Below are positions 4,640 to 46,352 of a DNA stretch of 64,000 nt, one piece after another. This DNA comes from Candidatus Saccharimonadota bacterium (lineage in GTDB: Bacteria; Patescibacteriota; Saccharimonadia; Saccharimonadales; AWTP1-31): NCBI GenBank assembly GCA_052034955.1, contig JBPOHZ010000008.1, positions 27,614 to 91,613 of the forward strand, written 5' to 3'. Made by a program: the position numbers and the translations under genes. Under the pieces are notes generated by a model. The model was not told the DNA's origin, searched no databases, and was given only the letters and a program-made list of their open reading frames with translations. Every line of letters begins with the position of its first letter. Position 1 is the first letter of the stretch.

Positions 4640-5416
4640 ATGTACGATAACACCCCCAAAAAATCTTTAGGTCAGCATTGGCTAAGTGATGAACTTAGCC
4701 TAACAGCAATGCTAAGTGCTGGCGAGGTTACCGACCAAGACTTGGTTGTCGAAATCGGGCCAGGCCAAGGTACGCTAACAAGGTTCTTGGTAGACAACGC
4801 TAAACAAGTCATCGCTCTAGAATACGACCAAGACTTGGCCAGACAACTTCCTTCCCGGGTAAAGGCCGACAACCTAAAAGTTGAATTTGCTGATTGTCTG
4901 ACATTCGACTACACTAGCTTACCGGCTGGCTACAAAGTTGTGGCCAATATCCCATATTACTTAACAAGTAATCTGCTGCGCACATTATCTGAATCTGCTA
5001 ATCCGCCATCTGTTATAGCTTTGTTAGTTCAGAAAGAGGTTGCCGAAAGAGTGGCCGCTGGTCCTGGTGACATGTCGATGTTGAGCGTCAGTGTCCAACT
5101 CTATTACCAGGCTGAGCTCAAAGACATCGTACCTGCAATTCTATTTACTCCTCCGCCAAAAGTAGATTCCCAGATTATCAAATTAGTTCGTAGGCCAGAA
5201 CCACTGTTTGAGAACCTGGATGAAAAGAAGTTCTTTAGATTAGTCAAAGCCGGTTTCTCGCAACGTCGCAAAAAATTACGGAGCAGCCTAAGCGCTGGAC
5301 TGCATATTACAAAAGATCAGGCCGAGCAGATGCTGGGCGCCGCAAATATAGATTCTAATCTTCGTCCACAAGAGTTAAGCCTGGATCAGTGGCATAACCT
5401 TTACCTACAATTCTAA
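4640..5416 (+). CDS. rsmA: 16S rRNA (adenine1518/1519-N6)-dimethyltransferase
   Basis: 258 aa. SAM-binding VVEIGPGQGTLT and the NIPYY motif of the KsgA/Erm family. TGCTAAACT -10-like box ends 6 nt before the ATG. Confidence 0.92.
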   Translation: MYDNTPKKSLGQHWLSDELSLTAMLSAGEVTDQDLVVEIGPGQGTLTRFLVDNAKQVIALEYDQDLARQLPSRVKADNLKVEFADCLTFDYTSLPAGYKVVANIPYYLTSNLLRTLSESANPPSVIALLVQKEVAERVAAGPGDMSMLSVSVQLYYQAELKDIVPAILFTPPPKVDSQIIKLVRRPEPLFENLDEKKFFRLVKAGFSQRRKKLRSSLSAGLHITKDQAEQMLGAANIDSNLRPQELSLDQWHNLYLQF

Positions 5417-6774: not shown

Positions 6775-8142
6775 ATGAAGAAGATTAAGATCAGCCTATC
6801 CAAGTCTCAGAAGCGATTCCTTTCTAGATATCGTCGTCAAATAATATTTGGTTCGAATATCGTGGCTTTTGTCACCCTGGGATTGGTTCTGCTCATATTT
6901 ACGCGCGCCGCACAGAACTCTACAAACTTTGAGGCAGAATTAGGTGTTAATAATGGAGCCGTGGAGTATTCAGATGGCCAGGCATCCGGAGGTAGATCGG
7001 TAAGATTCGGCAAGGCTACTGCCACCGATCTAGGCAATATTATGATCAACTCAACCTTAAACGCTAGAGCCGCTCAGTATAAAGATGCTTCGGAGTCGAC
7101 AGTAACTCAGAATCTTACCAGTAGAGGCAATCTAGAACCCAGCCCATCAGGCTATAACACGGCGAATGGACAAGGACAATTTAGATTTTTTTGCCAATAC
7201 TCACACTTTAATTACGACGATCCAATAGTCTACCCAGTTAAAGACGGAGTGCCTCAAAAAGGCAAGGCTCATCTGCATATGTTCTGGGGAAATACCGCGA
7301 TGAATGCCTCTATCACTAACGCCAACATCACGCAGACCGGTGGGGGTAGCTGCTCGGGCTTCGAGGCAAACAGAACCGGATATTGGATGCCGGCGGTTAT
7401 AGACGGTAATAATAAGGCGGTAATTCCCGAATCGATACTTATGTACTACAAATCGGCTTCCAACCTCAACGCCCAAACCAAAATTATGCCGGCGGGCCTA
7501 AAGATGATAGCGGGAAATTCTAGCGGTAATAGCCTTAGTACACCGAATAATGTAAATGGTATCCAATGGCAGTGCTATACCGGTAGTGTAAATTACACCT
7601 ACCAGGGGCAAACCATACCAGATAGGTGCCCGCCTAATCCGGGTACAAATGGAGATAACTTCCCCATCCAGTTGGTGGCAATTATTTACTTCCCAGCCTG
7701 CGTGGCAGTAGACGGCAGCAATAAGCCCATATTGGACACCTCACAGGATTTAGCTCGTTTCCCAAGCAATAATCATAAAGACCATCTATCCTACTTTGTT
7801 TCTAGCGGGGGCCAACTTGCTTGCCCATCTAGCCATCCATATATCATGCCCCAAGTTAGCTATCATGTATCATGGCCAGGAAATCTAGATTATTCTAGCT
7901 GGCACTTATCTTCAGATAGAATGCCTGGTATGCCAACCATGCAAGACGGACAAACCTTACACGCCGACTGGTATGGTGGTTGGAATGATACAATCATGAA
8001 ACATTGGACAGAAGGCTGCATAAACAAGGGTCAGAACTGTTCCAATGGGGTTATGGGTACTTCGGCTAATTTCCCGACTAACCAGCAACTCAAGGCTTTG
8101 CCGTCAAACTATAGCGGACCAAATCCAATAAGCTTACCATAA
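6775..8142 (+). CDS. Membrane-anchored DUF1996-like protein
   Basis: DDPIVYP...GKAHLHMFWGN resembles the DPIV.PG...HxHxFxG signature of DUF1996. TM anchor present. ATG 6775 is preferred over TTG 6748 (TGTTATACT box at 6754-6762, AAGG upstream). Confidence 0.5.
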   Translation: MKKIKISLSKSQKRFLSRYRRQIIFGSNIVAFVTLGLVLLIFTRAAQNSTNFEAELGVNNGAVEYSDGQASGGRSVRFGKATATDLGNIMINSTLNARAAQYKDASESTVTQNLTSRGNLEPSPSGYNTANGQGQFRFFCQYSHFNYDDPIVYPVKDGVPQKGKAHLHMFWGNTAMNASITNANITQTGGGSCSGFEANRTGYWMPAVIDGNNKAVIPESILMYYKSASNLNAQTKIMPAGLKMIAGNSSGNSLSTPNNVNGIQWQCYTGSVNYTYQGQTIPDRCPPNPGTNGDNFPIQLVAIIYFPACVAVDGSNKPILDTSQDLARFPSNNHKDHLSYFVSSGGQLACPSSHPYIMPQVSYHVSWPGNLDYSSWHLSSDRMPGMPTMQDGQTLHADWYGGWNDTIMKHWTEGCINKGQNCSNGVMGTSANFPTNQQLKALPSNYSGPNPISLP

Positions 8143-9985: not shown

Positions 9986-10398
9986 GGGGCTGAATTTTAA
10001 GCTCGACGTTGGACTTTAACAGACTTTAATGGCAGGCCGGATTGATCTACACGTTAGCTGGATCAAAATTATAGTTGCAGAAAAATCTACAGCTCGCGGA
10101 TCTCTAATTAAAGAACTAGCTGCAAAGCTTGTTCCTAATTCAGAGTTCGCACTAGCAGCCTAATTTAATTAGACTGCCGCTTCATAAGTGACATCAGATA
10201 ATTTATGTCAGCGCTATATACTTCTGATTGCTCCAGACTTATTTGCCCATAAGTTTGGCTAAGCCTTAGGGCTGCAGCCATTACATTTTTTGTTTGTTTA
10301 CACTGTTTTGGCTAAAGAAACATCCAAACAAACTAAGCCTGTAGTCATAAAGCCATGTTAACTGACGGACGCGGGGGCAGTACCCGCCAGCTCCACCA
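9986..10398 (+). ncRNA. ssrA: tmRNA (SsrA)
   Basis: 5' GGGGCUGA pairs with 3' CAGCUCC-A-CCA, including the G3:U wobble. T-stem is GCGGG/CCCGC. An internal tag reading frame ends ...NSEFALAA-TAA (stop 10161-10163). An intrinsic terminator follows. The resume codon is uncertain. Confidence 0.9.
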
Positions 10399-10433
10399 AA
10401 AACGCATCAACTAAAGTTGGTGCTTTTTTATTT
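10389..10433 (+). repeat. Direct repeat copy 1 (last 10 nt of tmRNA plus its terminator)
   Basis: 45/45 nt identical to 11175-11219 by direct comparison. Confidence 0.95.
10404..10433 (+). terminator. Intrinsic terminator downstream of tmRNA
   Basis: Stem GCATCAAC/GTTGGTGC (one G-U pair), loop TAAA, then TTTTTTATTT. Confidence 0.75.
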
Positions 10434-10510
10434 ATGCCCCACATCAAATTGCTTTTGCTTGCAAAGACACGAAGAAGCGATATAGTAAGTTGAAATCCTA
10501 AGGAGTATTT

Positions 10511-11056
10511 ATGAGTTTCAGAAAACCACAACATCCCGGTGAAGTTCGAACAGTTATGGAGGCTTCATATGCACGTTACGCTATGGGGTTAGATATGTTC
10601 CCTGCCGCACGTCTACGGTCAAATCCTAGCGACCTCCCTAGAAAGTCAAAAGCTATTGCAAGAACACTTGCCAGTGCTTGGGTGCGTATTGATGAAGACG
10701 AGTCTTACTTTATGGACACTACGATTGGACTTATAAAGAGAGCGCACGAGAAGATTAGAGCCGGAGAGCTTGACGGTGGCGCGATGCTGGCTATAACACA
10801 AGTAGGCAGAAACTGCGTGAAAATGGCTACTGTCACACCTAGTGTTGATCAGCCTCAGGTAACTCTGGGCGTTTTTCCTCGAGAAGAGTTTGTTAGAGAA
10901 TTTGAAGGCTTTGAATTTAATGCATCTGGTGGCAGAACACTTTCCCTAGTTAATGGTCAATTACAGACGGAAGGTGGTGGTCCAGATGTTATGGTTGTTC
11001 GCGGGTCAAATGTCAGCGGTCTGTTCCTACCTGGAAGCAATCAAGAAGCATCCTAG
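10511..11056 (+). CDS. Hypothetical protein (the only gene inside the repeat-bracketed insert)
   Basis: 181-aa ORF with AAGGAG 7 nt upstream. TTGCAA-N16-TATAGT promoter-like boxes lie upstream. No recognisable motif. Confidence 0.55.
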   Translation: MSFRKPQHPGEVRTVMEASYARYAMGLDMFPAARLRSNPSDLPRKSKAIARTLASAWVRIDEDESYFMDTTIGLIKRAHEKIRAGELDGGAMLAITQVGRNCVKMATVTPSVDQPQVTLGVFPREEFVREFEGFEFNASGGRTLSLVNGQLQTEGGGPDVMVVRGSNVSGLFLPGSNQEAS

Positions 11057-11174
11057 CCAAGCAGTGCACTAACCTCCAGGCATTACTCCGCTCTTAAAGT
11101 TAGTCCAGGGTACTCGTAGAACACCCCGCCGCCGCCCCAGTTCTGCTTCAATGAGGTGCCAATTATTTTGTATT

Positions 11175-11219
11175 AGCTCCACCAAAAACGCATCAACTAA
11201 AGTTGGTGCTTTTTTATTT
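11175..11219 (+). repeat. Direct repeat copy 2 (includes a second copy of the terminator hairpin at 11190-11219)
   Basis: Identical to 10389-10433. Flanking bases differ on both sides. Confidence 0.95.
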
Positions 11220-11254
11220 GCAAATATTTTGATTAGGCGGATAATACTAAAATT

Positions 11255-11548
11255 ATGAGAAATTATAGACAAATATTATTTGGTGAAATGGCTGGAGCTA
11301 ATTCTAATAGTTTTAGAGGCGTAGGCGAGAGCGAACCTGATTCGGAGCCAGTCTTTCTGGGTAATCAAACAACTTTTGATGGACCCGAAGTATTGCCGGT
11401 TTTTGGCCGACCGGATTGCCAAGTAAGACGAAGTGTTTGGATAGATCATACCGTAGAGGTTATATTGGGCGACGTACCGGAGAGTCTTTCGGCTGATCCG
11501 TTTGAACGAACCCTATTGGAATACAACGGCGTCATTGAAGACTTGTAG
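11255..11548 (+). CDS. Hypothetical protein
   Basis: 97-aa ORF with no motif recognised. Confidence 0.35.
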   Translation: MRNYRQILFGEMAGANSNSFRGVGESEPDSEPVFLGNQTTFDGPEVLPVFGRPDCQVRRSVWIDHTVEVILGDVPESLSADPFERTLLEYNGVIEDL

Positions 11549-11592
11549 GTTATCTCCTTGACTGTATGGTCTGACCAGCCTAGCATTAGGAC

Positions 11593-12855
11593 ATGCTAAA
11601 GACAACAAAAATTGCTGGCAAAATTGTCCGAAAGATTACTGGTCAACGTGGTCAGATCGACCAACCGCATATTGCTGGCGCTCTAAGCTACATAGAGGAT
11701 CATTGGGCTGTTCTAACTCATGCCGAAAAGAGTGACATAGGCACGGTCATTGGGTTGCCCCACCCTTATGTTGTGCCAGCTGCCGATCCAAAGACAAAGT
11801 TTACTTTTAAAGAGCAGTATTACTGGGATAGTTACTTTACGGCTGTTGGTTTGGTGGGCGGATCTCACCAGAAGCTAGCCGAGGGAATGCTAGATAATCT
11901 CATCTACCTATACAAAAGGTTTCATTTTATTCCAAATGCTAGCCGTATGTACTACATGAGCCGGTCGCAGCCACCGGTGCTTACTAGCTTTATTCGGCTA
12001 ATATATGAAACAGGGAATAAAGATCACCAATGGCTAGCCGAGCGTATGGCTGTGGCCGAGCAAGAATATACGACTGTCTGGACCAGCGAAACTCACCCAT
12101 TCTGGCACAAAGTAGATCATGGCCTTAGCCGCTACTACGACATTAATATGCTCCATGACCTTGCCGAGGCAGAAAGTGGTTGGGATATGACCACCCGGTT
12201 CGAGCGTAAGTGCCTAGACTACTTGCCGGTAGACTTGAATTCGCTGCTGTATAAGTACGAAGCCGATTTTGCTTGGGCTGCTAAAGAATCGGGCAACAAT
12301 AAATCTGCCGAACACTGGAAGGCTGCGGCCTCTAGGAGAAAATCTGCCATGAATAAAACAATGTGGCACAGTCGAAAAAACTTCTTTTTTGACCATAACT
12401 ACAACAAAAATCAGATTGGTGACGTCTGGTCATTGGCTGGGTTCTTCCCTATGTGGGCTGGACTGGCTAGCAAAGACCAAGCCGAACAGCTTGTTAGGCA
12501 GATATTCAGGTTCGAACACGACGGAGGTCTGTCTACAACTACCAGGCCATTAATAGACATGACTATTTTTGGGTCACTTAAAGCCCAATGGGCCTTCCCA
12601 AATGGTTGGCCGCCACTTCATTTTATTGTTCTGGAAGGACTAGAAAATTATGGCTATCACGATGAAGCTAAGCGGTTGGCCCGTAAGTGGATAAAAACTA
12701 ATTTGTATTGGTTTGAGCGCGATGGCGTCTTTCTAGAAAAATATAACGTAGTTAAGCCACACAAGCATCCGGTTGAGGGAGTGTATCCAAGCCAAACTGG
12801 ATTTGGATGGACTAACGCCATCTTTAAATATCTTTGTGAAAAATATCTGGATTGA
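11593..12855 (+). CDS. Trehalase (GH37-like)
   Basis: 420 aa. KEQYYWDSYF and QWAFPNGWPPLH match the two GH37 trehalase signature regions. Confidence 0.8.
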   Translation: MLKTTKIAGKIVRKITGQRGQIDQPHIAGALSYIEDHWAVLTHAEKSDIGTVIGLPHPYVVPAADPKTKFTFKEQYYWDSYFTAVGLVGGSHQKLAEGMLDNLIYLYKRFHFIPNASRMYYMSRSQPPVLTSFIRLIYETGNKDHQWLAERMAVAEQEYTTVWTSETHPFWHKVDHGLSRYYDINMLHDLAEAESGWDMTTRFERKCLDYLPVDLNSLLYKYEADFAWAAKESGNNKSAEHWKAAASRRKSAMNKTMWHSRKNFFFDHNYNKNQIGDVWSLAGFFPMWAGLASKDQAEQLVRQIFRFEHDGGLSTTTRPLIDMTIFGSLKAQWAFPNGWPPLHFIVLEGLENYGYHDEAKRLARKWIKTNLYWFERDGVFLEKYNVVKPHKHPVEGVYPSQTGFGWTNAIFKYLCEKYLD

Positions 12856-12856
12856 C

Positions 12857-13027
12857 ATGTATGATGAACTCTTACCATGTGCCGATAAACTAGCGTTTGA
12901 TACTAACAAACAAGCCCGTGCGGCAGCTGTAGTGGCTGAGCTTCAACATGGGGCTAAGCTAAAGACTTACCTGTGTCGACATTGCCAGCTTTGGCATCTA
13001 GCCAGTCTGGTGGCGGGATCTGATTAG
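12857..13027 (+). CDS. Small hypothetical protein with a C-terminal CxxC (CRHCQLWH)
   Basis: 56 codons starting at ATG 12857, 1 nt after the trehalase stop. The last 74 nt overlap the convergent gene 12954..13673. Confidence 0.4.
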   Translation: MYDELLPCADKLAFDTNKQARAAAVVAELQHGAKLKTYLCRHCQLWHLASLVAGSD

Positions 13028-13673
13028 CTCTTATGTAATCAAGAACTTGTTGCCTGGTATCCTGGGTTATATGATTCTCGGCTACACCAATCTCTAGTAA
13101 CTCGGATATGGTAAAAATAGATATCATAGTTATTCCAGAAGCAGCCAAGGTTTTACGACCGCCTTGCTCACGATCACAGACATTAATTAAATGGGTCATA
13201 AAGGCATGATGATTAGCAGATAGCATTCGAGCAAATCGTAGGGCGGTAATTGCACCAGAAGTATGATCTTCGAAAGTCGCTAATAATTCGCCTGCTACTG
13301 GCGGTTCATTGGCTGGTACGAAAAGGTAGCCACTATTTGTCGCTTGCTTCTTAAACTCTCTAAATGGTCCTGATCTACTGCCGCCATATGCAACGGCCGA
13401 TCGGCCTAATCTTGTACCACCACTTGGGATGGCACTTAGCGGGCGATTATGAACTCCCGCTTCCTCTGCAAGCTCGAATAACAATTTTCCAGATAATGTA
13501 ACAACTGTTTCTGATTCCTCAAAGCCTGGCTCTCCGGGCTTCGGTAGATGCATGTAAATAGGAGAAAGCGGTAGGTCTGGGTTTTGTTGGTGAGCAGAGA
13601 TCTCGAAGTCACCAAAGCGAATTATATCTTGTTCAAAGTATCGGCTGGCAAGTTCTTCACGGATCACACTCAT
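12954..13673 (-). CDS. Phosphoribosyltransferase-fold protein, divergent orotate-PRT-like
   Basis: 239 aa, collinear by eye with PyrE. A PRPP-loop-like LLATFEDHTSGAIT replaces the usual hydrophobic-DD-T/S-GG pattern. CDREQGG resembles the PyrE DRxxGG motif. TATAAT ends 8 nt upstream of the ATG. Confidence 0.45.
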   Translation of the reverse strand: MSVIREELASRYFEQDIIRFGDFEISAHQQNPDLPLSPIYMHLPKPGEPGFEESETVVTLSGKLLFELAEEAGVHNRPLSAIPSGGTRLGRSAVAYGGSRSGPFREFKKQATNSGYLFVPANEPPVAGELLATFEDHTSGAITALRFARMLSANHHAFMTHLINVCDREQGGRKTLAASGITMISIFTISELLEIGVAENHITQDTRQQVLDYIRANQIPPPDWLDAKAGNVDTGKSLA

Positions 13674-13863
13674 TCAACTAAATTATAACGGGTTATTCCG
13701 AGGTGCGCTATTCAGTGGTATAATATTACAATGACAAAAGTAATACAGATATCTTCATTGATGTTGATGCCCTAGTGGCTATTACTTTTTTACACTCTTA
13801 AATTTGATTTAATTACTAACAATTAACCTGGGTATCATCCCAGATAAAAGGTACAATACATCT

Positions 13864-15309
13864 ATGAATTACCTAGTAACCACAGCTATACCCTATGTAA
13901 ATGGCGATCCCCATATTGGCAACGCGCTTGATTTTGTGATGGCTGATGTCTTGGCACGAGCTGCGCGCAAACAAGGCAAGCCAACAATCTTTACCACTGG
14001 TACCGATGAGCATGGCCAAAAAATAGCTGACAAAGCTGCTGAACTTAAGCTAACCCCCAAAGCTTACGTTGATCAGCAAAGTCAGAAATTCCGAGATCTT
14101 GCCAAGTTGTTAAACATCAGTAACGACCGTTTCATCCGGACCACCGATGCCGGGCACGAACAACGAGCCGCCATAATCTGGAAGCAACTCGAAAAAGACA
14201 TCTACAAGAGTAAGTACATTGGCTTGTACTGCAAGGGATGCGAAGAGTTTGTTACCGATAATGTAGCCAAAGAAAACAAAGGTGTTTGCCCTAGGCACAA
14301 CCAACCGTATGAGCGAGTAGAAGAAGAAAACTATTTCTTTAAACTTTCTAACTACTCCGAGCAAATAAGGGCCGCCATTCAGGCAGGCACCTTCGAGATC
14401 ATTCCTAAAACTCGTCGAAACGAAATCCTAAACCTGGCCATCGAAGGACTAGAGGACTTTAGTATTTCTCGGCCCACTAGCAAATTGACTTGGGGAATCC
14501 CCGTTCCCGGAGATAAAACACAGGTAATGTATGTCTGGCTAGACGCTTTAGTTAACTACATTACAGTACTTGGTTACCCCGAACACGAAGACTTCAAAAA
14601 GTTTTGGCCAGCCAACGTGCAGGTGATCGGAAAAGATATTATTCGATTTCATGCTGCATATTGGCCAGGAATTTTGCTGGGTCTTGGATTACCATTACCC
14701 GAAAAGCTTTATGTTCACGGCTTCGTAAACATTGCTAATCAAAAAATGAGCAAAACACTTGGCAACGTTGTCTTGCCGCAAGACATTGTTAAGCAATACA
14801 GTGCTGATGTGCTTCGCTACTATTTCCTACGTCACATACCAAGTTATGATGACGGAGATTTTTCCTGGGAGAACCTAGAGCGAGCCTACAATAACGAACT
14901 GGCAAACGAGCTAGGAAATGCTGTTCAACGTACGGCGGCCATGATTACGCAGTATCAAAAGGGTATCATCGGTGAAGTGCCTGCCCAAAACCACGACATG
15001 GCTTTGTACTGGGAGGCAATTAACGACTGCAAATTCGACCGTGCCCTTGACCATGTTTGGGAAAAGATTCGTGGGCTCAACCAATATATCGAAGAAGAAA
15101 AGCCTTGGGCAATCGCTAAGTCTGGCGATGAATCTCACCTACAAGAAATACTGGCTTACCAAGTTAGTAACTTGTTACAGATTGCCGAAATGCTCGAACC
15201 GTTCATGCCCGAAACTGCTGCTAAAATAAAGCATGTCTTTGACGAAGGGGTAATCCGTCCAAGTGAAGGTACTCTATTCCCACGTCGTGAACCAGCCAAG
15301 AAAGCTTAA
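13864..15309 (+). CDS. metG: Methionine--tRNA ligase
   Basis: 481 aa. Class I signatures PHIGNALD (HIGH) and KMSKT. Zinc knuckle CKGCEEF...CPRH. TACAAT ends 6 nt before the ATG. Confidence 0.93.
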   Translation: MNYLVTTAIPYVNGDPHIGNALDFVMADVLARAARKQGKPTIFTTGTDEHGQKIADKAAELKLTPKAYVDQQSQKFRDLAKLLNISNDRFIRTTDAGHEQRAAIIWKQLEKDIYKSKYIGLYCKGCEEFVTDNVAKENKGVCPRHNQPYERVEEENYFFKLSNYSEQIRAAIQAGTFEIIPKTRRNEILNLAIEGLEDFSISRPTSKLTWGIPVPGDKTQVMYVWLDALVNYITVLGYPEHEDFKKFWPANVQVIGKDIIRFHAAYWPGILLGLGLPLPEKLYVHGFVNIANQKMSKTLGNVVLPQDIVKQYSADVLRYYFLRHIPSYDDGDFSWENLERAYNNELANELGNAVQRTAAMITQYQKGIIGEVPAQNHDMALYWEAINDCKFDRALDHVWEKIRGLNQYIEEEKPWAIAKSGDESHLQEILAYQVSNLLQIAEMLEPFMPETAAKIKHVFDEGVIRPSEGTLFPRREPAKKA

Positions 15310-20272: not shown

Positions 20273-20337
20273 AAGATAATTGACACAAATACAAAAATAA
20301 TATATCGTATTCAATGACTATTAAGTCATACGTTGAT

Positions 20338-20392
20338 CTGCATATCTGTATTTGGTCGCTTGGATAAGCAGGGAGTAAGTAGCGAAACCGGG
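20338..20392 (+). promoter_or_regulatory. Candidate cis-regulatory pseudoknot RNA, copy D
   Basis: P1 is CUGCAUAUC/GAUAAGCAG. The loop carries GGUCGCU, complementary to the downstream AGCGA-AA-CC. A TTGACA box lies at 20280-20285. The RBS-sequestering hairpin UCUCUAUC/GAUAGGAGA (20424-20446) precedes ATG 20452. Confidence 0.6.
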
Positions 20393-20451
20393 ACGAATCT
20401 CTCTTGAATACAAGTTTGTTCGATCTCTATCAATTAAGATAGGAGACCTTT

Positions 20452-44623: not shown

Positions 44624-44660
44624 ATGACTAATCAAAGCAATTTGGTTGTCGACTAAGAAG

Positions 44661-44712
44661 CAGTACTCGTATTTGGACGCTTGAGTATTGTGGAGTCACT
44701 AGCGTAACCGGG
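44661..44712 (+). promoter_or_regulatory. Candidate cis-regulatory pseudoknot RNA, copy B
   Basis: P1 is CAGUACUCG/UGAGUAUUG (9 bp, 2 G-U). Loop GGACGCU (44675-44681) is complementary to AGCGU-AA-CC (44701-44709). An RBS-sequestering hairpin lies at 44741-44759. Confidence 0.6.
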
Positions 44713-44762
44713 CAACAAGCTACTCTATTGAGTATCTCGAGCTCTTATAAATAAGGAGCAAT

Positions 44763-46163: not shown

Positions 46164-46274
46164 CACAACACTTTCTATCTAATAAGTATATATTTTAGAT
46201 AACTTTGTTGACAAATATCAAACTTACGTAGTACGCTTAAATCAATCAAAGCAATTTGGTTGTAGACAATGAAA

Positions 46275-46326
46275 CAATACTCGTATTTGGACGCTTGAGT
46301 ATTGCGGAGTCAGTAGCGTAACCGGG
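46275..46326 (+). promoter_or_regulatory. Candidate cis-regulatory pseudoknot RNA, copy C
   Basis: P1 is CAAUACUCG/UGAGUAUUG. The G-to-A change relative to copy B converts a G-U pair into A-U. GGACGCU is complementary to AGCGU-AA-CC. TTGACA lies at 46208-46213. Confidence 0.6.
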
Positions 46327-46352
46327 CAACGAAAAACTAATCTCATATAAGA

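Follow-up and report, generated by a model that had tools for sequence, protein, structure and literature searches.

A probable recombinase-less single-gene cassette at the 3' end of ssrA in Saccharibacteria, and the large serine recombinase family to which it would belong

The closest known systems to the locus described here appear, by analogy of layout, to be the ssrA islands of Dehalococcoides, with their recombinase DsiB, and the staphylococcal SCC elements. The Dehalococcoides islands (McMurdie et al. 2011) lie in tandem, bounded by a 20-bp ssrA repeat, at a single-copy ssrA 3' end (PMC3146451). DsiB, a CcrB-like serine recombinase of ~540 aa, is encoded on the reverse strand beside attL and overlaps the last ~70 bp of ssrA; units lacking an integrase but keeping attL and attR were termed 'cis-mobilizable', and the authors speculated that dsiB is perhaps complete only on the circle or behind another island (PMC3146451). 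Here we analyse a 64-kb stretch of DNA from a member of the Saccharibacteria (Saccharimonadales), hereafter the window, in which a short segment follows the tmRNA gene, ssrA, and is bracketed by copies of its 3' end. We consider it quite likely that positions 10399-11184 are a recombinase-less single-gene integrative cassette, and that it belongs to a family whose insertion at the 3' end of ssrA in this group is the work of a clade of large serine recombinases (LSRs). Loci or contigs of relatives are given L numbers, and homologs from a recombinase protein search P numbers.

Rfam identifies ssrA at 9986-10398 on the + strand (RF00023, 85 bits, E 1.6e-31, full model 1-374), and integration targets its 3' end (B arm plus core). 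A repeat search of the window found an exact 45-nt direct repeat, AGCTCCACCAAAAACGCATCAACTAAAGTTGGTGCTTTTTTATTT, at 10389-10433 and 11175-11219; the two copies are 100% identical, 786 nt apart, and have different outer flanking bases on both sides. By our own estimate, about 1e-18 such exact pairs would be expected at random in 64 kb. Because Rfam places the tmRNA end at 10398, the repeat consists of the last 10 nt of ssrA and 35 nt downstream of it, and both times these 35 nt hold an intrinsic terminator of canonical form, in which an 8-bp hairpin with a loop of 4 nt precedes T6 (10404-10423 and 11190-11209). The first copy, attL, holds the core AGCTCCACCA (10389-10398) and the left (P') arm of the cassette (10399-10433), which doubles as the ssrA terminator; the second, attR, holds the same core (11175-11184) and the displaced native ssrA terminator. 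Sequence inspection located a promoter-like site, TTGCAA-16-TATAGT (10459-10486), and a ribosome-binding site, AAGGAG (10500-10505), ahead of an ORFan of 181 aa (10511-11056), all on the + strand; this is the sole ORF in the bracketed segment, where Pfam, PHROGs and NCBIfam detected no recombinase. An earlier note on this DNA had described both the exact repeat of the tmRNA 3' end around a single-gene insert and the integrase-free ORF with its own promoter-like boxes and ribosome-binding site. The repeat search and Rfam bear out the former, and the empty Pfam, PHROGs, NCBIfam and tblastn searches the latter. No compositional anomaly of the insert was found. As to the tmRNA itself, an ARAGORN run on the window missed the gene at 9986-10398 despite its 85-bit Rfam match, and the Rfam alignment contains a long unaligned insertion at the position of the model's tag reading frame.

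More informative than the 45-mer is what lies to the left of its second copy, overlooked in the earlier note: a conserved element at ~11064-11174, on the minus strand, matching the family profile with 117 bits in nhmmer. The family came to light in L001, a contig on which six unrelated small ORFs stand in a row; immediately past the stop codon of each comes a ~125-nt conserved element, and window stretch 11047-11223 is a copy of that element. Its members end in ..GGTGCCAATTTTTT..(A/G)G.TCCACCA, followed by a terminator hairpin. A scan with the 3' motif GGTGCCAATTWTTT..TCCACCA, on one genome per species, returned 23 stretches, of which 17 were in metagenome-assembled genomes of Saccharibacteria/Saccharimonadales and the remaining 6 were isolated chance matches in unrelated phyla; an nhmmer profile maps ~45 copies in ~20 Saccharibacteria contigs. 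At six of the seven loci of the motif scan that hold a tmRNA, and in the window as well, copies lie 3' of ssrA on the same strand. The layout is ssrA followed by one to at least six units of a small ORF plus an element; the ORFs are unrelated, cargo and occupancy differ from genome to genome, and in some arrays the final element is truncated (L001 3927-3970, L013 7030-7080). The window holds no further copy, decayed ones included (unfiltered nhmmer, E<=50). Neither the element motif nor the LSR had a match among IMG/VR viral contigs; a phage origin was rejected on this empty search together with the absence of PHROGs matches for the cargo.

The element codes on its reverse strand. The reverse complement of nearly every copy is an open frame for a conserved peptide of ~40 aa, (L/M)V(E/D)L.(R/Q)(K/N)NWH.I..E(Q/L).RW..(L/I)L.V.W.R.K.GY.P(E)G, with conservative replacements and a stop codon kept inside the element's 5' box; only a few copies are frameshifted. 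In the window this frame is intact, reading LVELIQNNWHLIEAELGRRRGVLRVPWTNFKSGVMPGG on the minus strand up to a stop codon at 11069-11071. Column entropy over reverse-strand codons is 1.03 bits at the third position versus 0.74 at the other two (Mann-Whitney p=0.006), while the same test in the other two phases gives p ~0.9.

The peptide is an alternative C-terminus of an LSR, i.e. the element is the detached 3' end of the recombinase gene. Pfam analysis of 94 flanking ORFs found KsgA (6), NUDIX (6), DEAD helicase (4) and MetG (2), which are the conserved chromosomal frame, and three Resolvase-domain proteins, all of them LSRs, in L021, L016 and L005. LSRs of 523-562 aa were located in L016, L021, L029, L030 and L031: that of L021 has 523 aa and that of L016 526 aa, the two being 62% identical, and a protein of at least 383 aa in L005, with Resolvase and Recombinase domains, is 30% identical to the L021 one. 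The LSRs of L021, L016, L030 and L029 carry the motif RVS(T/S)xxQ and match Pfam Resolvase at E 1e-13 to 2e-18; they also have weak Recombinase and Zn_ribbon_recom matches, a CxxC...CxxC motif and a coiled-coil-like stretch. Against NCBIfam only weak, sub-threshold XisF and CcrB matches were obtained (CcrB 33 bits versus a cut-off of 900, for the L005 protein). The domains of the LSR class are thus present in the family and absent from the window cassette which, having no recombinase of its own, is therefore a non-autonomous derivative and not a complete LSR element.

How the recombinase gene lies relative to ssrA can be read from L016 and L021, two whole contigs of ~7 kb. At one end they have an element copy, the core and a terminator; at the other, the LSR ORF runs antisense through the terminator hairpin into the tmRNA 3' end, so that the LSR C-termini (..SLMVELAGNAPASASL) correspond to the tmRNA acceptor and T-arm translated in antisense. 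A protein search returned 775 LSR relatives at E<=1e-10, from Saccharimonadales wherever the source is named. Of the 117 full-length homologs among the matches listed, 45 have this tmRNA-antisense tail (strict pattern VEL.G.AP.S), and residue pairs within such tails (A..A, V..T, E..S, R..R) mirror compensatory T-stem changes. Three others (P0031, P0024, P0021) bear the element-type tail instead, e.g. ..ELILKNWHQIEPELERWKELLLVPWNRHKQLQTPGVT. L030 shows the overlap in place: its LSR ORF (10001-11626) converges with the tmRNA gene (11526-11919) and overlaps it by ~100 nt, and its 6.5-kb island terminates in an element copy (4937-5072). In L029 and L031 the island measures 2.8-2.9 kb, i.e. the LSR module (LSR, ~140-aa ORF, small ORF) and one cassette-like cargo unit, and it lies behind a recombinase-less cassette whose element supplies the tail of the LSR.

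Other features of these islands deserve mention. A small ORF of 50-76 aa ending at or overlapping the LSR start is conserved across islands (L016 5183-5347, L021 5511-5666, L029 9778-10008, L030 9852-10004) and is a candidate excision or directionality factor. The ~140-aa ORF further upstream is 69% identical between L029 and L031, while the ~142-aa ORF at the same position in L030 has no detectable similarity to it. In L021 the island cargo is for DNA-damage tolerance: a LOOT RNA (5046-5158; RF03000, 81.5 bits) lies beside a gene of the translesion-polymerase family (Pfam IMS/IMS_C) and a SRAP gene. A sister clade of the LSR (P0063-P0094) ends in ..SLLVRV(R/K/Q)GL, a tail that looks like the antisense of a different tRNA-like 3' end (..GCGCACCA) and may point to another RNA gene as its target.

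The cassette with the 181-aa gene behaves as a unit. The protein has only 3 homologs among 5.8e9 proteins, and it matches nothing in Pfam, PHROGs, PADLOC or NCBIfam; an attempt to assign a function by structure failed (AlphaFold2 pLDDT 62; best Foldseek PDB match E=0.13). One homolog, 63% identical, is in L001. In the window the family's gene immediately follows ssrA; in L001 it occupies the fifth or a later position, and in L004 it precedes a different cassette. Since the three copies are homologous from the promoter box through the ORF and element and then diverge fully, among different neighbours, it is this whole segment that forms the unit; the promoter box and 5' UTR are common to all three, and the TTGCTTGCAA box of the window promoter is a motif that recurs at cassette left ends. 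With three array positions in three genomes, the gene is not the conserved syntenic neighbour of ssrA that the earlier note had named as grounds for discarding an insertion, and the other such ground, that all relatives share the duplicated arrangement, does not apply either, given that the content behind ssrA differs completely between them.

Across arrays, 47 of 54 ORFs are singletons in BLASTP. Pfam assigns some of the cargo to SAM methyltransferases, GNAT, NUDIX, sortase, GDSL lipase, Crp and response regulators, and transporters, next to many ORFans; these are typical accessory functions. The idea of a defence island was abandoned, as PADLOC gave only a few matches in the 54 ORFs. No recombinase was found by Pfam among these 54 ORFs, nor upstream of ssrA, where only KsgA, MarR, MFS and similar genes occur. 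Remnants of an LSR persist inside two arrays (L006 3690-3809, L031 3936-4052), and hence deletion of the module does occur. L006 has a further peculiarity at 6900-7900, where, with respect to KsgA and the array of cassettes, a segment of ~455 nt with promoter and tmRNA is inverted; on the array side the junction retains a partial core and a P'-like arm (..ACCA|TAAGCGTCAAGTTTTTTCAATTTATGTTCGCAAAAC), and the arrangement looks like a recombinase-mediated inversion of ssrA itself.

Comparison of loci places the window cassette in a hypervariable slot. L030 has the left flank of the window (UvrD, G5-domain protein, KsgA, MarR, MFS, ssrA) and its 6.5-kb LSR island in place of the cassette. On the right, the frame extends over 11593-15309 on the + strand, from a trehalase (11593-12855; Pfam Trehalase) through MetG (13864-15309). 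The trehalase lies 3' of ssrA in six metagenomic relatives (L071, L054, L057, L074, L049, L097), the first two of which also align across MetG; L029 is syntenic for trehalase, MetG and TatD, its ssrA being beyond the contig end. From ssrA to trehalase the distance is 1.2 kb in the window, against 1.6, 1.6, 2.7, 2.8, 3.8 and 5.5 kb in the six relatives, with unrelated genes inside. A variable gap with a conserved flank means that the slot behind ssrA is hypervariable and that trehalase and MetG are chromosomal frame; of the accessory block that the earlier note saw to the right of the insert, only the ssrA-trehalase slot deserves the name. A metagenome scan anchored on the tmRNA 3' end only yielded at least 80 loci; of the 47 with at least 1.5 kb downstream of the tmRNA, 7-8 have an element, 2-3 an LSR or a fragment of one, and the rest neither.

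Sequence identity between attL and attR is mostly short. The sequence common to both ends of an LSR island is GCTCCACCATA in L030 and TCCACCA in L029 (7-11 nt), and since the ends share nothing more we infer that the crossover would lie within TCCACCA. In all recombinase-bearing islands the left (P') arm is one conserved sequence, TCCACCA|TAAGAGACTTTCGGTCAA.CCGAAGGTCTTTTTTG, which is at once the last codons of the recombinase and, on the other strand, the ssrA terminator. In 12 other loci with ssrA and an element, the exact attL/attR repeat covers 6-10 nt of ssrA ((AG)CTCCACCA) and 0-6 nt beyond. Identities this short would be consistent with LSR elements, whose attL and attR match briefly around a central crossover dinucleotide, with no long arm-type sites; the window has 45 nt. 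The earlier remark that the repeat lies mostly beyond the tmRNA is right for the window and peculiar to it: identity downstream of ssrA is 35/35 here, and the nearest loci reach 32/35 (L100) and 26/35 (L026). The long identity arises because the terminator in the cassette's left arm and the one at the site of entry are the same. Terminators of this family, AAAACGCATCA..TGGTGCTTTTTT, are also present at att junctions of related genomes (L016, L008, L004 and L019), and the sharing would fit exchange inside a single lineage or a recent event. More generally, TCCACCA is followed by a terminator from a few recurring families, often with a TATGCTTGCAA box after it that fits a -35 hexamer. At least four terminator-hairpin families recur directly after TCCACCA in different genomes, whether it ends a tmRNA gene or an element copy; the terminator of ssrA thus appears to travel with cassettes as their left arm.

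From these data a mechanism can be proposed. Full elements span 2.8-7 kb, with the LSR gene adjoining attL, antisense to ssrA. The last ~16 LSR codons would double, on the other strand, as a tmRNA terminator, and the attP crossover, in TCCACCA, would fall inside the LSR ORF, ~40 codons ahead of its stop. Integration, presumably catalysed by the LSR, would then split the gene: the body would stay at attL and read on into the tmRNA gene, while the last ~40 codons would be left at the far end, at attR, as the ~125-nt element. The same event would regenerate the tmRNA 3' end, with a new terminator; a regenerated end means that further units can enter, giving rows of [terminator-promoter-ORF-element]. 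Units without the LSR module would retain both arms and would need a recombinase in trans, by which such mini-cassettes are probably moved. The window unit would have kept the P arm (11064-11174), the core and the P' arm (10399-10433), its LSR module having been lost or never present.

Several observations weigh against an LSR-family cassette in the window. Canonical LSRs do not recombine attL with attP, and repeated entry at an occupied ssrA thus requires a relaxed site selectivity, as in Ccr, which we have to assume. The element is conserved over ~125 nt, far beyond what an LSR half-site requires. The recombination model alone does not explain the 45-nt identity in the window, which far exceeds the 6-10-nt core seen elsewhere. 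Searches by tblastn with three serine recombinases had no match in the 64-kb window, and the LSR has no relatives of solved structure by sequence. Exact-protein look-ups and the metagenome scan yielded no empty site, excised circle or strain-level polymorphism for this strain. The look-ups with MetG, the 97-aa ORF that follows the repeat, and MarR hit one Logan sample only (L028), those of the 181-aa ORF and the MFS gene not being on record, and the metagenome scan returned no near-identical relative. The L028 contig begins exactly 30 nt inside the repeat, as expected of a k=31 assembler at a repeat, and from this break it follows only that the 45-mer occurs there in more than one left-hand context.

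Among the alternatives, the one that we take most seriously, while still deeming it rather unlikely, is decay in situ: a full LSR island would have lost its recombinase module and most of its cargo by internal deletion, leaving a fixed, immobile remnant that never arrived as a mini-circle. It departs from the cassette interpretation only in history and present mobility. The LSR fragments of L006 and L031, the small size of the smallest islands (an LSR module and one cassette-like unit within 2.8-2.9 kb) and the lack of an LSR within the window all fit it. Yet two other genomes have the 181-aa cassette elsewhere in their arrays, with promoter box and boundaries as in the window, which independent deletions would hardly yield, and cassette left ends share their architecture (terminator plus TATGCTTGCAA box) over many unrelated cargos. 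The intact reverse-strand frame of the window element also speaks against an old remnant, as do the repeats, whose 45/45 identity suggests a recent event. Of the origins listed in the earlier note, a miniature element mobilised in trans and a decayed islet are the two that survive; a cassette duplication reusing the terminator does not. In a further scenario, the terminator region of ssrA would have been duplicated locally, in tandem or as a segment, or reshaped by gene conversion, without site-specific recombination, the 181-aa gene being an ordinary neighbour. The unusual length of the repeat, its position mostly outside ssrA and the identical terminators are what one would then expect, but what precedes the second copy is a family element (117 bits) instead of tmRNA sequence, synteny between ssrA and the 181-aa gene is lacking in relatives, and the ssrA-trehalase slot varies between them. 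Family-level evidence already contradicts this scenario, and we consider it very improbable.

Equally little credence goes to a classical tyrosine-integrase island decayed to one gene, even if duplicated tRNA or tmRNA 3' ends are the usual mark of such islands (general knowledge and, in part, Islander). Motif searches at all loci and Pfam overviews found no tyrosine recombinase in the window, the array loci or their flanks; the recombinases that they did find there are all serine recombinases. In addition, identity with the tmRNA gene spans 6-10 nt and does not reach the T-arm, and the element encodes the tail of a serine recombinase. The integration scar (attL/attR) at the ssrA 3' end announced in the earlier note is upheld, with large serine recombinases as the family involved in place of the tyrosine integrases behind standard tRNA/tmRNA scars. 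Rows of promoter-ORF-repeat units with hyper-diverse cargo also bring integron arrays to mind, and one could imagine the element as a folded single-strand site of the attC type, as a structured RNA or as a tRNA-like 3' UTR, its recognition depending on structure. We hold this to be highly unlikely too. RNAalifold gave -2.4 kcal/mol, with an invariant 4-bp helix as the only feature and no consensus fold, and hairpins proposed by eye showed no covariation above shuffled controls; against a folded site stand also the codon periodicity on the reverse strand, the lack of any IntI-type recombinase in our searches, and the promoter and terminator that each cassette has of its own. The family is therefore neither an integron (no IntI, no attC fold) nor a tyrosine-integrase island.

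In layout the LSR-linked cassettes resemble the Dehalococcoides ssrA islands. In both, units sit at the 3' terminus of ssrA and a direct repeat of it marks their far boundary; in both, the serine recombinase gene adjoins attL, is encoded on the reverse strand and runs into the end of ssrA (here in relatives L030, L016 and L021, the window having no such gene). The differences are several: the phylum is Patescibacteria/Saccharibacteria; units are shrunk to single genes of 0.6-1.3 kb, each equipped with a promoter and a terminator, and up to six or more of them stand in a row; and the module is smaller (LSR, ~140-aa ORF, 50-76-aa ORF) than the six-gene integration module of Dehalococcoides, with no homologs of DsiA, ParB, RecF or Mom in the ORFs scanned. 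A coding, conserved alternative C-terminus of ~40 aa lies across attP, whereas the overlapping part was reported as divergent in Dehalococcoides (PMC3146451). With SCC/SCCmec (CcrAB/CcrC) the family would share LSR insertion at the 3' end of an essential conserved gene, regeneration of the target end in tandem composite arrays (at rlmH, or orfX, in SCC) and, as in ccr-less pseudo-SCC, recombinase-less units with the same bounding repeats that are thought to be moved in trans (general knowledge; PMC3146451). SCC elements differ in having a protein-coding target and not a tmRNA, a size of 20-60 kb, and an internal recombinase gene that attP does not split. The likeness to integron arrays is one of outcome only (one platform site, rows of single genes, hyper-diverse and mostly unknown cargo, a conserved 3' recombination sequence); unlike integrons, the arrays have no IntI that we could find, no attC hairpin, promoters and terminators of their own, and a repeat that is a relic of recombinase coding sequence. 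Broussard and colleagues reportedly described, in 2013, mycobacteriophages with attP inside the repressor gene and an integration-dependent truncation of its product. Here too attP would lie within a gene of the element, whose protein would have a different C-terminus when integrated and when excised; there, however, a tyrosine integrase acts and the repressor is split, while here it is the recombinase itself, and a regulatory role is speculative. Literature searches found no description of such a system for Saccharibacteria or Patescibacteria.

Taken as a joint claim, an integron-like, LSR-driven gene-capture platform at ssrA, with cassettes shuffled in trans and a tail-swap switch, is a possibility that we put forward tentatively and would rather doubt than affirm as a whole. 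Each single-gene cassette would bring its own promoter and a terminator also serving the tmRNA. The LSR would have the conserved ~40-aa C-terminus only when excised or behind another unit, and the tmRNA-antisense tail when adjoining ssrA, and this swap might be a built-in switch that senses the integration state and sets directionality or activity.

The remaining features of the window lie mostly to the right of the cassette. A second promoter-like site, TTGCAA-16-GATAAT (11218-11245, + strand), precedes the 97-aa ORFan (11255-11548, + strand), which sits in the hypervariable slot and has no homolog in any relative. No element copy follows this ORF, even with relaxed nhmmer settings, and its status as a second cassette is uncertain. 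The 84-aa CxxC protein encoded at 12773-13027 matches phrog_15216 (E 3.5e-5) and is found in many relatives, at varying positions around ssrA and trehalase. In the interval between trehalase and MetG, a 239-aa gene (12954-13673, - strand) weakly resembles orotate phosphoribosyltransferase, below threshold (23 bits, the cut-off being 208). The syntenic relatives have no homolog of it, and a second variable spot, smaller than the first, may lie here. Further away, the window contains three c-di-GMP-II-type riboswitch aptamers on the + strand (20317-20402, 44639-44722 and 46253-46336; Rfam RF03169 and RF01786, all above the gathering score), a notable count for 64 kb of a small genome. Another side observation comes from L001, where a 132-aa gene with 23S_rRNA_IVP/bAvd-like matches (12918-13316) lies within the ATP synthase operon, flanked by the genes for the gamma and beta subunits.

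The finding matters mainly for the family-level picture that the window cassette exposes. In Saccharibacteria and other bacteria of the Candidate Phyla Radiation, whose genomes are tiny, little is known of how genes are gained. The ssrA-linked slot would rank among the main sites at which strains vary, and genes for host interaction or defence could naturally be sought there. A compact LSR with short, well-defined att sites at a universally conserved RNA gene could be turned into a tool for genetic work in this phylum, which is very hard to engineer. Finally, the split LSR gene and its conserved alternative C-terminus make the speculation raised for Dehalococcoides testable.

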